IMG/VR virus record: IMGVR_UViG_3300031132_000002
Source of the DNA: a virus
Length of the DNA stretch: 64,000 nt
Direction: 5' to 3' (one strand)
Positions 3,925-59,468 of the stretch are shown here, piece after piece. The position numbers were made by a program, and so were the translations under genes. The notes under the pieces were generated by a model. The model saw nothing but the letters and a program-made list of their open reading frames with translations. It was not told the origin of the DNA and ran no database searches. Numbering within the stretch: the stretch's first letter is position 1; the number at the start of each line of letters is the position of its first letter.

Positions 3925-5408
3925 TGGCAGATTATGGTTTAACTGACGCAGGGTTTGTAATTCCTACGTTTGACGATATCTTAGATCGTTATGTAACAGC
4001 ACTACAAAATACTTTCGGAAGTGATGTAGCCACATCAGAAGATACTGTCTTCGGTCAGTTATTCCGTATTGTAGCCTACACAGACTACACCCTTTGGGAA
4101 GGAATGCAAGGAGTCTACAACTCCCAAACCCTGAACGGTGCAGAAGGTACATACTTGGATGACCTGTTCGCTAAGCGTGGCTTGACTCGTCAATCAGCTA
4201 CAGCAGGTAGTGGCTTTGTTTATGTCAAGTCAACAAGCAAGGCATTGTGGACTGCATCTTTGGACACAGACACATATTTTACCGCAGATAATGATCTATC
4301 ATACTACGTCTCAAGTAAGACTCTGCTCAATGCTTCCATTGCAGCATACACTCTTACTAAAGCACAAGCTACCAGTGCAGCAGATCAAGTTACGTTCTAC
4401 ATTCAAAACACTCTGGATGGTGGTTTAAACTCCATCACTCTTACATCATCGTCTAACACATTTATGTCTGACCTGGTTACTTTTATTCAGGCTAACGTAG
4501 CATCAGCGGATAAGAGCCTTGTCAGTACTAAAGATGGCGTTTTGTATGTGGGTTTCAATACCGCAGACTACACCAATCCTGTAGGGCTGTCAACTGCAAC
4601 TAAGTTCTATGCTACAGTAAGTATTGGTACAAAGTGGAGCCTGATTCCAGTAGCTGCCTCTGAAAAAGGATATAATCCAGTAAGTACAGGCGGTATTACG
4701 GGTATCTCATCTACTTTCACCGGATACTCTGCGACAGGTAACTTCACTGCTTTCAGCACTGGTACGGATGTTGAGACAGATGCTGAATTCCGTTCTCGCT
4801 TCAATGATAACCAAGACGAAGCAAACGCTGCCACACGTCCGGCTATTATTTCGGCTCTGCTGAACGTTCCTGGCGTGACAAAGGTTAGAGTATATGACAA
4901 CCCTACTTCTGTAGATCAGAACTACGCTCCAGCATTCACCTTCAACACAATCGTGTACGGTGGAGATGCAGAGACAGTGGCGCGTACCATCTACGAGAAG
5001 AAGCCAATCAACACTCTTACTTATGGTACTGTTGCAACGACAATTACCACAGAAGACGGTGGAAGTGAGATCATCAAGTTCACTCCAGGAAGTACCCGAG
5101 AGTACTCAGTAAAACTGGTTTACACTACAGCCTCAGGGAAAGTACTTACCACAACAGAGAAAGCTAACATTACCACAGCACTACGTGATTTGGAAGCATA
5201 CTTTGAGATTGGTAGTAAAGTAACTAATGATCAGATGAAAGGTGTTATTTACAACGCACTGGATTTTGGACGCTTGACTTACCTTGCTGTTTATGTTAAA
5301 CTAAGTAGTGAAGATGATGGAAGTTACAATAATGGTGACATTGAACCAGCATATAGCGTTGTACCATCTTTTGACACGAGTAACATCTCATACGAATACA
5401 AGGACTAA
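3924..5408 (+). CDS. Baseplate J-like wedge protein
   Basis: YGLTDAGF N-terminus, GTDVETDAEFRSR, VPGVTKVRVYDN motifs. Confidence 0.88.
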   Translation: MADYGLTDAGFVIPTFDDILDRYVTALQNTFGSDVATSEDTVFGQLFRIVAYTDYTLWEGMQGVYNSQTLNGAEGTYLDDLFAKRGLTRQSATAGSGFVYVKSTSKALWTASLDTDTYFTADNDLSYYVSSKTLLNASIAAYTLTKAQATSAADQVTFYIQNTLDGGLNSITLTSSSNTFMSDLVTFIQANVASADKSLVSTKDGVLYVGFNTADYTNPVGLSTATKFYATVSIGTKWSLIPVAASEKGYNPVSTGGITGISSTFTGYSATGNFTAFSTGTDVETDAEFRSRFNDNQDEANAATRPAIISALLNVPGVTKVRVYDNPTSVDQNYAPAFTFNTIVYGGDAETVARTIYEKKPINTLTYGTVATTITTEDGGSEIIKFTPGSTREYSVKLVYTTASGKVLTTTEKANITTALRDLEAYFEIGSKVTNDQMKGVIYNALDFGRLTYLAVYVKLSSEDDGSYNNGDIEPAYSVVPSFDTSNISYEYKD

Positions 5409-39025: not shown

Positions 39026-40039
39026 TTATTTTGGGCCGTACACACTGAGAATCTCGTCCAAATACACTTCACGGATGAACTTGTCCCAGAAAGTAGGATC
39101 AGCCTTTTCCTGCATACCATTCTTTTTGGCTTGCACTGATAGCTTTTCTACTTCACTAACAATATCCTCAAGAGCAACCTGAATCTCTTTGAAGGGGATC
39201 TCTCCGGCTTTAACTTTGATCAGGTACTCTCGATCCTTAAGAGGATACACCAGATCACCCGTCGAGTAAATCTCTTTCAACTGCAAACCACCGCGCAGAG
39301 CGTGACTGAGTGCTTTGAAGTCGATACCTTCATTCAGTTCTGCCTGACGCGCCCTGTGTCCGTAGTCGTCCCACGTCTTCTGTAAAGAGTTCTGCATTTC
39401 TTCCACAGATACACTGGTCTGGAACTTACGTGCCAAGACAACATAGAAATCCTGGAAGCCTGAACGTTGGTTTTCATCAACAGTCCACTCACAGAATTCG
39501 TTCAGAGGTAGTGTATGTGCAATATCACCAACACGGGTTTTACGCAGGCGCTTACCCTCGTGTTTAGGGTCTGGTGAATGAGAAGGCGCTGCTGCTAATG
39601 CCTCCATAACCTGACGAAGACAAGCCATACGACTACCTTTAACGCCATACTTACCAGCTTGCTTACGCACATAACCTAGGTAGGATTTCATATCCGTAGA
39701 ATAGAAGTGCGAACGGTTAGCTTGGAGTTCTGCCCATACTGCCGGAAGATCTGAGTGTACCACTCGGTTAGCTGGTGCGTGGATCATATCAAGAGCTAAG
39801 GTTTCGCCTTCGATGCCTAAGTTAATGAAGTAACGCAGACTGAAACTTTCGTAATCCACGTCCTCAGCCGTATTTTTCACATCGTCGCTACTTGTGTTGT
39901 AACTCATATGATTCTTTACTGTTCCTAGCAGGATGCTCTCTGCGTCTGGAACAAAGATCTCTTTATAATCCGTATCTGATTCTGGTGTATCTGTGCCATA
40001 AAGTTTACTTCCGAATAAAACCTTAGCGATTGTTTTCAT
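39026..40039 (-). CDS. Pol-beta-superfamily nucleotidyltransferase (T4 NrdC.11-like)
   Basis: GSKLYGTDTPESDTDYK, GYVRKQAGKYG, DFKALSHALR. Confidence 0.85.
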   Translation of the reverse strand: MKTIAKVLFGSKLYGTDTPESDTDYKEIFVPDAESILLGTVKNHMSYNTSSDDVKNTAEDVDYESFSLRYFINLGIEGETLALDMIHAPANRVVHSDLPAVWAELQANRSHFYSTDMKSYLGYVRKQAGKYGVKGSRMACLRQVMEALAAAPSHSPDPKHEGKRLRKTRVGDIAHTLPLNEFCEWTVDENQRSGFQDFYVVLARKFQTSVSVEEMQNSLQKTWDDYGHRARQAELNEGIDFKALSHALRGGLQLKEIYSTGDLVYPLKDREYLIKVKAGEIPFKEIQVALEDIVSEVEKLSVQAKKNGMQEKADPTFWDKFIREVYLDEILSVYGPK

Positions 40040-56192: not shown

Positions 56193-57323
56193 ATGTCTAC
56201 TTATACCCGTTACGGTGAACTGATTACAATTAACAAGCGTATGGGCATCCCAATGGATAGCCTGCCTGTAGGGACGTATGCACTGTCCTATAATGATAAC
56301 ATTGGTTATCATCTGGCTCTGGTTCCAGATATGGACATCCCGTCAAAACTCTACGGTGAAACAGACAGTCGAGCAAACCACGTAATCAAAACCTATCTGC
56401 GCCGTGCGGAAAAAGGTGATAACACTGGCGTACTCCTTTCTGGTACAAAAGGTAGTGGTAAAACAATGCTGGCAAAAGTGGTTGCTAAGAAACTGGCAAC
56501 ACTAGGCATCAGTACCATTCTGATCTCCGAGCCGTACACAGACGCAGGCTTTATTGAGTTTATGTCCAAGATTCAAGAGAAAGCTATGGTGATGATCGAT
56601 GAGTTTGATAAACTCTACGATGAAAAGAAGAAACAGGAATCTCTTCTGACTGTCTTAGACGGCACAGGTACAGGTAATAAAATGTTTATGCTGACAAAGA
56701 ACAATGGCTTCTTGTCTGAGTTCTTTAAAAACCGCCCTAGCCGTATTTTCTACAGCTTTGATTATGATAAGATCAGCGATGCAACAATGACTGACTACTT
56801 AGAACATCAACTGGATAACAAACAACACATTGCAGGCTTCAATCGTTTGCACGAAGTGAGCTTTGAACTGTCCTTCGATGTTATCCAAGGGTTAGTTGAG
56901 GAGCTAAACGCCTATCCCGAGATGCATTTTAAGGATGCTCTGGATATGATGGGTATCACGTTCGGCGCTGGCAAGGGTGAGTGGAAGCTGTCAGAGATGA
57001 CAATCAACGGTGAAGTGATTCAGACAGGTCACGTATCAGGTATCTACGGATTCGATCTGATTAAGTTCCTGGACAACAACATTCAGTTGACCGTTTACCT
57101 GAAAGAGAAAGCCACTCAGAAGGCATTACTGAAAAGTGTACCCCTGATTAAAGTAGGTGAAGATGACGATGATACATCAGAACTCACCTTTAGCGCTAAC
57201 ACAATGGCTATGGCTATCACAGACGGCGGTAAGCTGGTGTTCGAGGACAATACAGGGTCAGCACTGCGACTCGTACTTGAGCAGCCAATCACTGCTACAG
57301 GTGGATTCAGTCGGATTTTCTAA
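56193..57323 (+). CDS. AAA+ ATPase
   Basis: Walker A GTKGSGKT, Walker B VMIDEFDK, LLTVLDG, NRPSR. Confidence 0.92.
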   Translation: MSTYTRYGELITINKRMGIPMDSLPVGTYALSYNDNIGYHLALVPDMDIPSKLYGETDSRANHVIKTYLRRAEKGDNTGVLLSGTKGSGKTMLAKVVAKKLATLGISTILISEPYTDAGFIEFMSKIQEKAMVMIDEFDKLYDEKKKQESLLTVLDGTGTGNKMFMLTKNNGFLSEFFKNRPSRIFYSFDYDKISDATMTDYLEHQLDNKQHIAGFNRLHEVSFELSFDVIQGLVEELNAYPEMHFKDALDMMGITFGAGKGEWKLSEMTINGEVIQTGHVSGIYGFDLIKFLDNNIQLTVYLKEKATQKALLKSVPLIKVGEDDDDTSELTFSANTMAMAITDGGKLVFEDNTGSALRLVLEQPITATGGFSRIF

Positions 57324-57983: not shown

Positions 57984-58189
57984 TTGATATTTGCTGTGAT
58001 ATTTGAAACGGAAAAGGGATTTGAAGTGACGTGCCGATCCCTGGAAATGGGAGAACTAATCCCTCTCCTGCTTCCTGTACAGCGTTGTGGCAAACTCTCT
58101 CACCTAACCCATAAACTCACCTAGATAAGTTTAAAAACCTCTCAGGATTGTTCTCAGTAGTTCTTAAAGATACCTATAAAACTTAATCC

Positions 58190-58413
58190 AAGAAATCGGC
58201 AAAAGGTCGTAGGATTTTTTCGAGTTTTCAGAAACCAGATTTAGAAATCCCGAAATTATATTAAGAATCGATCCCGAACAAATCTCACCTGTATCAGAAA
58301 AAATCAGAAAAACCTTGACAAAATTATTTTTAAAAAATCGGGCCAGGGTCGTAGGATTTTTTTGACTTTTTGAAAAACAGAATTTCATTTTCCAGAATTA
58401 TATTAAAAAATCG
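58190..58413 (+). repeat. Two imperfect ~80-bp direct repeats with A/T tracts
   Basis: Identical GGTCGTAGGATTTTTT at 58205 and 58347; shared AATTATATTAA..AATCG. Confidence 0.75.
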
Positions 58414-58440
58414 CATTTTCGGCAGGTATTATGCGCCTGA

Positions 58441-58515
58441 TCATAGTTTCGGGGGTGATAGTTTGCAGGCTAATGGTTTCGGGCGTGATAGTTTCAGACG
58501 TGACTATTTCGTTAG
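58441..58515 (+). repeat. Five degenerate 15-bp tandem repeats
   Basis: tcatagtttcggggg/tgatagtttgcaggc/taatggtttcgggcg/tgatagtttcagacg/tgactatttcgttag. Confidence 0.75.
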
Positions 58516-58659
58516 GAAACTATTAATCACCGGACGTTACTATCTGAATGACGGGCAGGGGCGGTTCTCTCTTCACTTAAGCAGCGTCTTACTCTGGGAA
58601 TATAATATCATACTGACTGAATAGATCAACGATTATTTCAATCTTTACAAAACTTATTT

Positions 58660-58745
58660 TAGACAGCTTACCGGCGATTCACCTTGCAGCCCCTTCGGGC
58701 CTGCTAGCCAAGTTTAGCGCCGTTGGTAGGCGTTGCCTTACTGTG
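58660..58745 (-). ncRNA. Candidate ~85-nt hairpin sRNA
   Basis: Directly downstream of promoter 58751-58779; no ORF; nested pairings CGGCG/CGCCG, GCAG/CUGC, CCC-GAA-GGG. Confidence 0.5.
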
Positions 58746-58750
58746 AAAAC

Positions 58751-58779
58751 AGTATAACCAGGCTTGCGCCTGGCGTCAA
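58751..58779 (-). promoter_or_regulatory. Sigma70 promoter with palindromic spacer
   Basis: TTGACG-ccaggcgcaagcctggt-TATACT. Confidence 0.75.
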
Positions 58780-58782
58780 TAC

Positions 58783-58941
58783 TTAATCATAATTTTTGTC
58801 ACGTCCAATAATACAAACAAAAGTCCAGCCGTCATCCTCTACGCTTTCCTTTATTTCCTCTACCGTACCGCAACGGCTTAAAGTTGTTGTAGAATTAGAA
58901 TCCGCATCGAAAACTTTTACCAGGTAGTATTGATCGATCAT
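58783..58941 (-). CDS. 52-aa early protein
   Basis: MIDQYYLVKVFD...; own promoter; below the track cutoff. Confidence 0.6.
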   Translation of the reverse strand: MIDQYYLVKVFDADSNSTTTLSRCGTVEEIKESVEDDGWTFVCIIGRDKNYD

Positions 58942-58971
58942 AGCGTAACCCTTGTTTGTTTCAGTTCGATT

Positions 58972-59000
58972 AGCATAGCCTGGCGGGGCCAGGTAGTCAA
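58972..59000 (-). promoter_or_regulatory. Sigma70 promoter with palindromic spacer
   Basis: TTGACT-acctggccccgccaggc-TATGCT. Confidence 0.7.
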
Positions 59001-59177
59001 TTAATATTCCAGTGAATCCGCAATTATTTCCCCGTTCTCCGCTACTACCTTCACACGATAAAAACCCGCGTCTAACATCCTCATAGCGTGAGGCAATGGA
59101 ACCCGGCGAGATCCGCAGTGCAGCGCACTTGTTTCCCAGGTAAAGAGAGTAACCATTGTATCTGAGGAAGTAATCAT
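59001..59177 (-). CDS. 58-aa early protein
   Basis: MITSSDTMVTLFTW...; RBS AGGA; own promoter at 59207-59235. Confidence 0.6.
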   Translation of the reverse strand: MITSSDTMVTLFTWETSALHCGSRRVPLPHAMRMLDAGFYRVKVVAENGEIIADSLEY

Positions 59178-59240
59178 TTTCTTGTCCTATTTGTTGGAGT
59201 CAGAACATTATGCCCGAAATGAATCGGGCAATCAATAGTT

Positions 59241-59468
59241 TTATTCGACAATATCAAAGAAAGTCGCTAGGTCTGCGCGGCTCAGACAATAGCCTGAATT
59301 GATCATCGCTTTTGTTTTACGGTCGATCATAACCTGACTAGCGTTTGTATGTGCCGGAGAGGTAACAAGGAACAGATCGCCTGGCTTTACATTAACAGGA
59401 CGGCCCCGCCCATTCAGGGACTTAATCTGGAAAGGGCTTTTTGCTGATACCATAGTAAACTGTTTCAT
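59241..59468 (-). CDS. Small early protein
   Basis: RBS AAGGA; VKPGDLFLV. Confidence 0.7.
   Translation of the reverse strand: MKQFTMVSAKSPFQIKSLNGRGRPVNVKPGDLFLVTSPAHTNASQVMIDRKTKAMINSGYCLSRADLATFFDIVE

Follow-up and report, generated by a model that had tools for sequence, protein, structure and literature searches.

On the minus strand of the window (the whole 64,000-nt stretch of the IMG/VR virus record IMGVR_UViG_3300031132_000002 analyzed here), at nt. 58660-58779, lies what is very probably a real, conserved, and structured RNA gene, composed in order of a short leader, an H-type pseudoknot, a bulged hairpin, a box of ~25 nt (AAGGUNNAUCGCCGGUAGNUCGUCU), and an A/U-rich tract. The family is new: it is without an Rfam match and undescribed as far as our literature search reached, and the literature searched contained nothing relevant on any RNA, replication origin, or transcriptome from these phages. 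Taken as a whole, the reading that we favor, by a modest degree, is that of a small non-coding RNA gene of an undescribed family, acting in trans early in infection, with its box bound by a conserved host partner.

Promoter and Transcription Unit

The first-pass annotation of this region had proposed a promoter of the form TTGACG-N17-TATACT, which was borne out by a consensus scan of the minus strand (10/12); this promoter, here termed P1, has its -35 hexamer (TTGACG) at nt. 58774-58779 and its -10 hexamer (TATACT) at nt. 58751-58756. The 17-nt spacer between them (nt. 58757-58773, minus strand) contains a hairpin, CCAGGC-GCAA-GCCTGG, that was terminator-like in the scan (7 pairs, tail TATACTGTTT), with a T-rich stretch on its 3′ side, and it probably acts as the terminator for the transcript of the upstream 52 a.a ORF. 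A hairpin is present in the P1 spacer of most relatives as well, in other letters (CCCGG/CTGGG, CCCCG/CGGGG, AGCCC/GGGCT, and GCGCCC/GGGCGC). Across the distinct versions of the element, all 43 carry a sigma-70-like promoter (score 9-12/12, spacer 17-18) located 15-22 nt upstream of S1, the first stem of the pseudoknot, with a -35 hexamer that is mostly TTGAC[AG], TTGCAA in one subgroup, and TAGACA once.

P1 belongs to an early class of promoter described for Certrevirus phages (PMC7344957), and it is the promoter type, together with the early-region position, that suggests early expression of the RNA. The start, ends, and timing of this candidate transcript are predictions made from the sequence; judging from the distance to the -10 hexamer, the 5′ end would lie near nt. 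58744. No terminator was found in the window between the box and the next promoter (nt. 58629-58602). The transcript quoted in the annotation proved letter-exact and, as stated there, has no AUG, and the loop of the bulged hairpin (P3) differs in length by 1-3 nt among close relatives, shifts that exclude a conserved coding frame.

Also correct was the description of the neighboring minus-strand promoters, each of which is followed by one small ORF (nt. 58783-58941, 59001-59177, and 59241-59468). We noted a GC hairpin within the spacer of three successive minus-strand promoters (nt. 58751-58779, 58972-59000, and ~59207-59235), which looks like a design with each upstream terminator built into the promoter that follows, so that every small gene has a promoter and a terminator to itself. 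The 58 a.a ORF at nt. 59001-59177 encodes a DUF7170 protein (PF23776, E 5e-21) and, in many relatives, immediately precedes the promoter of the RNA. The 52 a.a ORF (nt. 58783-58941), with its own promoter, is an extra cassette missing from the nearest relatives, L033 and L037.

Architecture of the RNA

The predicted 5′ leader (ACAGUAAGGCAA, nt. 58733-58744, minus strand as are all parts below), placed by promoter geometry, is 10-15 nt long and purine-rich in all relatives. It is followed by the 5′ arm of S1 (CGCC, nt. 58729-58732), which pairs with the 3′ arm (GGCG, nt. 58718-58721) in 97% of alignment cells. Inside the S1 loop sits the 5′ arm of the second stem, S2 (CCAA, nt. 58723-58726), whose partner (UUGG, nt. 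58708-58711) lies beyond S1, both 3′ arms having been assigned by comparative alignment. The loop L3 (CUAAAC, nt. 58712-58717), which crosses S1, is 6-7 nt long and A-rich in all variants. The S2 pairs themselves differ between phages, being CCAA:UUGG in the window, CCCC:GGGG in most coliphages, and CCAG:CUGG and CUCC:GGGG in one metagenomic phage each.

Directly abutting the pseudoknot, right after S2, is the hairpin P3 (nt. 58682-58707), built from a CU/AG base, an A-A mismatch, GCAG/CUGC, a bulged G, CCC/GGG, and a GAAG loop. This plan (2 bp, mismatch, 3-4 bp, one-base bulge, 3-7 bp, and loop) recurs in all 26 distinct versions, while the letters vary freely. The single-stranded tail behind it (nt. 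58661-58681) forms, together with the AAGG of P3, the near-invariant box, the core of which (AUCGCCGG, nt. 58671-58678) is identical in every intact copy. The A/U-rich tract that comes next (nt. 58642-58660), conserved in enterobacterial phages, ends in TTTGTAAAGA (nt. 58642-58651), and in relatives a second copy of TGTAAAGA occurs 10-11 nt beyond the first. A further promoter, P2 (TTGATC-N16-TATTAT, nt. 58602-58629), lies outside the RNA fold and limits the possible end of the RNA. ARAGORN detected no tRNA or tmRNA gene in the window; the UAGCUC of the tail resembles the start of a tRNA D-arm.

Comparative Support for the Fold

Support for this architecture comes from two alignments made in different ways. 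For the first, a covariance model was built from S1 and P3 only, with S2 left out, and used to align 40 sequences; since S2 is absent from the model, its support is not circular. In this alignment, 87.8% of cells are paired and 10 of the 17 pairs change on both sides. The second was a plain MAFFT alignment of 35 distinct variants, including those from Aeromonas phages, which was fitted to no structure; here, 88.4% of cells are paired and both sides have changed in 13 of the 17 pairs (S1, 2/4; S2, 2/4; P3, 9/9). Covariation was 0.241 in the model-fitted alignment, compared to 0.073 in shuffles (0/500 as high) and at most 0.075 with the partners slid, and 0.329 in the MAFFT alignment, compared to 0.099 (0/500 as high) and at most 0.085, respectively, where the sequences are akin by descent, such that the shuffle controls overstate significance and the independent compensatory events number perhaps 10-15 by our estimate. 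The RNA also shows strand asymmetry, with P3 being more stable than its reverse complement in 26/26 variants (means of -10.4 and -7.5 kcal/mol, respectively).

The compensatory base changes among related phages, a check that the first-pass annotation had itself proposed, therefore speak for the pseudoknot and hairpin, and the variable loop lengths (1-3 nt) and the strand asymmetry in relatives likewise show a structured RNA. What held of that annotation is a unit that lacks an ORF, carries a conserved promoter of its own, and gives a structured RNA; what did not is the single fold drawn for it. The "one long GC-rich hairpin" corresponds to the minimum free energy fold of the single sequence (-29.8 kcal/mol), which shuffled sequences equal (z -0.80). 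Given that 43 of 200 shuffles fold as well, the window by itself provides no evidence of structure. Over 40 homologues, the long hairpin minus its apical part has 67.7% of cells paired, the same as shuffled controls (346/500 as high), with a covariation of 0.063 against 0.061 when shuffled. Its outer helix forms in the window's own clade only and is not conserved in relatives, and the same is true of a leader-tail pairing, which is kept nowhere outside that clade. The Rfam/Infernal search also suggested there, run against Rfam 15, returned no match in the window at gathering thresholds and none in nt. 58300-59000 at E up to 10.

Distribution among Phages

When a 1-kb query was compared with other phages at the DNA level, the element was the sole matching part. 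A sensitive search recovered it in 76 records, and the copy from phi92 as the query recovered it in 246 phage records at 247 places, that is, essentially one per genome. The covariance-model search likewise gave a single copy in phi92, in phiTE, and in the closest complete relative of the window (141 kb). The carriers are rV5/phi92-type phages of ~140-150 kb belonging to the Vequintavirinae and Stephanstirmvirinae, as well as the window's own clade, and the hosts of the enterobacterial carriers comprise Escherichia, Klebsiella, Salmonella, Cronobacter, Enterobacter, Erwinia, Pectobacterium, and Serratia. Most records have nothing annotated at the element, and some have short "hypothetical protein" calls on either strand.

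The 5,426 complete E. coli genomes contain no copy. When collections of metagenomes and of bacterial genomes were scanned with a pattern, nearly all of the matches were due to chance; at least four were genuine copies from metagenomes, and the first 120 matches listed contained none from bacteria. We also looked for distant members by way of the neighboring AAA ATPase (80 loci), where the model matches were known relatives only; two marginal model matches at ATPase loci were rejected, as they were positioned on a tRNA-like stretch.

In Aeromonas phages of the genus Plateaulakevirus, the phi92 query matched only the tail of the element, whereas the covariance model recognizes the whole of it (57.9 bits), colinear with the window copy. 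All the stems are rewritten there with the pairing kept: S1 is GGAC:GUCU or AGCC:GGCU, S2 is CCAU:AUGG, and P3 is GAU-A-CUU GCAA AAG-AUC. By comparison, GAAGGUUGAUCGCCGGUAGCACGUCUA is kept almost letter-perfect, and the box is 92% identical to that of phi92. In phage 2L372X and its relatives, the element stands alone in a 310-bp gap between two opposite-strand genes, where TTGCTT-N17-TATAAT precedes it and a hairpin ending in a U-rich tail lies ~30 nt past the box; the letters of this terminator stem vary between phages and its pairing is preserved. As read from its sequence, the Aeromonas copy is a predicted self-contained RNA gene of ~140 nt with its own promoter and terminator. In 4L372-type Aeromonas phages (L376, L389, and L392), L3 has received an insertion of ~47 nt comprising three small hairpins, with the other RNA parts unchanged, which is the kind of expansion expected in a folded RNA.

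The Invariant Box and Proposed Function

The most conserved parts of the element, ATCGCCGG and TTTGTAAAGA, are conserved as sequence and not as pairing, and the flanks of the box (AAGGU and UAGNUCGUCU) are nearly invariant. The alignment showed no conserved pairing of the box with the leader. The GGCG/CGCCG of the box could also pair with the 3′ arm of S1 (5 pairs, with all ten positions invariant), the outermost of these pairs being G-U only in two endonuclease-truncated copies, and an alternative conformer, and hence a switch, may be formed in this way. A search for the complement of the box in the window and five phage genomes gave self-matches and chance-level matches with two mismatches only, and the lack of a phage target points to a host or protein partner. 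In E. coli genomes, a 54-nt query, longer than the seed length, gave nothing at E up to 10.

Homing endonucleases tend toward target sequences that are invariant and functionally constrained. In the phage cardinal (L015:559-1152) and an IMG/VR relative (L046:6423-7013), an HNH endonuclease gene (PHROG 953, E 2e-81) lies within the box right after AUCGC, and behind this insertion are a new promoter and a second, divergent, complete RNA copy with its box intact. In the Pectobacterium phage P7_Pc (L014:1088-1162), both RNA copies are present and the HNH gene between them is reduced to its last 25 codons. A selfish element is thus treating the box as a reliably conserved target. Several relatives also have HNH paralogues where the non-coding block ends on its far side, and in a metagenomic relative (L023:~5040-5300) an ORF that is HNH-like by eye directly follows P2. 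The region is a homing endonuclease hot spot.

Regarding function, the host RNA polymerase would transcribe the RNA from the conserved sigma-70-type early promoter, and the folded 5′ module would stabilize or protect the RNA and present the box. The invariant box would be the working part, recognized by a protein or RNA partner conserved among gammaproteobacterial hosts, and the RNA would act in trans at an early stage of infection. Where it has no terminator, in the window and in enterobacterial phages, the RNA may be processed or may form the 5′ domain of a longer non-coding transcript. A host partner is favored given that the sequence of the box is kept across phage groups sharing little other DNA and has no phage target. 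The missing terminator, with P2 and repeats after the box, fits a cis role as well as one in trans, and we consider action in trans to be close to an even call, tipped slightly in its favor. Tentatively, and as a possibility that we would not back at even odds, the RNA may serve host takeover on a wide scale, being made in the first few minutes of infection by virulent phages of Enterobacterales and Aeromonas and capped by its pseudoknot, with the box binding a core machine shared by these hosts (for example, the RNA degradosome, ribosome, RNA polymerase, or an RNA chaperone) and redirecting or blocking it. If true, it would be the first of its kind in large lytic coliphages, a trans-acting regulatory RNA with broad conservation.

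The Gene-Free Block Downstream of the RNA

The window and enterobacterial relatives share a fixed order of a small ORF, P1, the RNA, an A/U-rich tract with one or two TGTAAAGA motifs, and P2, the position of which is conserved among the enterobacterial relatives. Beyond P2 come a conserved block, palindromes or short repeats, further promoters and long repeats, and then genes on the other strand. The repeats amount to ~470 nt beyond P2 in the window and to ~0.5-0.8 kb over the window and its enterobacterial relatives taken together, and in the relatives the whole gene-free order from P1 onward covers 0.7-0.8 kb. P2 precedes the conserved block GAGACAAACACC...UGCCCGYYAUUC (in the letters of the relatives; window nt. 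58530-58629, relatives L007:1696-1755). A second structured RNA after P2 was considered and rejected, with the alignment fold being weak (-0.89 kcal/mol, covariation term 0), and the conserved block may instead be a DNA-level signal. The 276 nt downstream of the box show no greater structure than shuffles (z -0.49).

The repeats in the window comprise five 15-nt units and two 78-nt repeats. The 15-nt units, with a ACTATCAC core, are found in the window's clade (window nt. 58441-58530), and relatives (L024, L032, L005, L017, and others) have 2-5 palindromes such as AAATGATAATGATTATCATTCAA at 60-200 nt after P2, which we take to resemble the enterobacterial Fur box. The palindromes or 15-nt units could be operator or iteron sites. 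The 78-nt direct repeats (nt. 58190-58267 and 58332-58409) are 74% identical, lie 142 nt apart, and contain A/T tracts. A 74 a.a ORF (nt. 58164-58388) that overlaps them matches the relative L033 only as two separate pieces and is probably not a gene. The other strand encodes, ~1.3 kb away from the RNA, a 376 a.a AAA-type ATPase (nt. 56193-57323; PHROG 2376, E 3e-95) with a weak likeness to clamp-loader and DnaC-type loader families, relatives of which at ~30-50% identity are widespread in large phage contigs.

This arrangement raises the chief alternative, a rather unlikely one, in which the element works in cis within a replication origin or some other region of genome-level control; P1 and P2 would fire into the non-coding block, and a G-rich structured RNA followed by an A/T-rich stretch would prime or activate replication. 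Consistent with such a role, the order of P1, RNA, TGTAAAGA, P2, block, palindromes, and repeats is fixed and gene-free in every enterobacterial relative, the window has its five 15-nt units and two 78-nt repeats, and the RNA has no terminator in either. In addition, the rV5 genome paper marks a "non-coding" box and describes the origin as not placeable by skew (PMC3606486). The alternative is weakened by the Aeromonas phages, which keep the RNA and box without the repeat block, in a 310-bp gap and with a terminator. Furthermore, the repeats and palindromes differ between clades where the box is constant, and GC skew in the window tracks gene orientation and gives no signal at 58.5 kb.

Decoy and DNA-Level Signal as Improbable Readings

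The first-pass annotation had proposed an RNA decoy or regulator made right after injection. That the element would counter host defense, by imitating a type III antitoxin, by serving as an anti-CRISPR RNA, or by soaking up a defense nuclease, we consider improbable. The element is an H-type pseudoknot, as type III antitoxins also are, and its relative phiTE is the phage where an RNA antitoxin mimic was discovered (PMC3475682). Against this, there is no tandem unit in nt. 58626-58745, each of three genomes has just a single copy, phiTE nowhere matches the full 36-nt ToxI repeat at up to 3 mismatches, and the pseudo-ToxI of phiTE lies at nt. 106,714-106,772, far from the element at nt. 39,690-39,809; a type III antitoxin mimic is unlikely. 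Moreover, the box is near-invariant over phages of Escherichia, Klebsiella, Salmonella, Cronobacter, Erwinia, Pectobacterium, Serratia, and Aeromonas, and such constancy over several host genera and two orders is a poor fit to a decoy for variable, strain-specific defense.

A role at the DNA level alone, be it as the target of a homing endonuclease, as a site bound by a protein, or as a hairpin in the DNA, without any functional RNA, is highly improbable. In its favor, ATCGCCGG and TTTGTAAAGA are conserved as sequence and not pairing, the box is the target of an HNH gene, and the TGTAAAGA boxes stand at -45 and -55 of P2 (an activator-type position). Against it, compensatory changes keep three helices, folding is strand-asymmetric in 26/26 variants, the promoter is at a fixed distance in 43/43 versions, and the Aeromonas copies lack P2 and TGTAAAGA yet keep the fold, box, and terminator.

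Comparison with Known Systems

The reading that we favor, that of a small trans-acting RNA, can be set beside several known classes of RNA. Compact H-type pseudoknots with an A-rich third loop occur at luteovirus frameshift sites, in the T4 gene 32 leader, and in the preQ1-I aptamer. In topology and size the element matches them, the stems being 4-5 and 3-4 bp, the first loop 1-2 nt, and the third loop 6-7 nt in length, and this A-rich third loop might occupy the minor groove of S1. A pseudoknot close to the 5′ end, with an A/U-rich stretch behind it, is a further likeness to the T4 gene 32 leader. Unlike all three, no ORF or frameshift site follows, and there is no expression platform, no regulated gene, and no Rfam match. 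With respect to a riboswitch or cis-acting leader, no ORF lies downstream in the window or most relatives, the RNA preceding an ORF only in the HNH-disrupted copies.

The put RNA of phage HK022 is a cis-acting antitermination RNA with two stem-loops and no pseudoknot that acts on downstream genes. Like put, the element folds over 65-75 nt of RNA made right behind an early promoter, but it contains a pseudoknot and nothing coding lies downstream. Other phage and plasmid transcripts, such as the R-loop RNAs of T4 oriF/oriG, the RNA II of ColE1, and the primary-origin transcripts from T7 phi1.1A/B, prime or activate replication. These share with the element a promoter, a structured G-rich RNA, an A/T-rich stretch, and a position at the head of a gene-free repeat region; however, the Aeromonas homologues lack the repeat region and the invariant box has no counterpart in those systems.

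Small phage RNAs running from promoter to terminator include the lambda oop RNA, P22 sar, the P1 C4/P4 CI RNA, and T4 RNAs C and D, which are antisense to a neighboring phage gene or part of temperate-phage immunity. Like these, the element is a short ORF-less unit in a phage genome, with a promoter and intrinsic terminator in the Aeromonas copies. The U-tailed terminator typical of Hfq-type sRNAs is present in the Aeromonas homologues and absent between the box and P2 in the window. In contrast to those small phage RNAs, the element had no complementary site beyond chance in the window or five phage genomes, and it resembles neither the C4 family nor any other family of Rfam. The carrier phages, moreover, belong to groups described as lytic (phiTE, PMC3475682).

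With ToxI, the type III antitoxins, and the pseudo-ToxI of phiTE (PMC3475682), the element shares a short non-coding RNA, an H-type pseudoknot, and single-stranded flanks. As with pseudo-ToxI, it is encoded by a phage, and by the same phage lineage, with phiTE carrying both. In contrast to the ToxI-type antitoxins, the element is single-copy and not a tandem array of 34-45-nt units, it has no adjacent toxin gene, and it adds a hairpin and an invariant box of ~25 nt, both of which the antitoxins lack.

Defining the RNA would correct the annotation, which is blank in most records and elsewhere gives false small "hypothetical proteins". Binding of a host factor by the box would, if true, reveal a new takeover mechanism, and if the element marks an origin instead, it would locate the replication origin of the rV5/phi92 group. 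Few non-coding RNAs are known from virulent phages, and most of these are anecdotal; by comparison, the present family has ~250 members in sequenced isolates, including easily handled therapy and BASEL-type coliphages.
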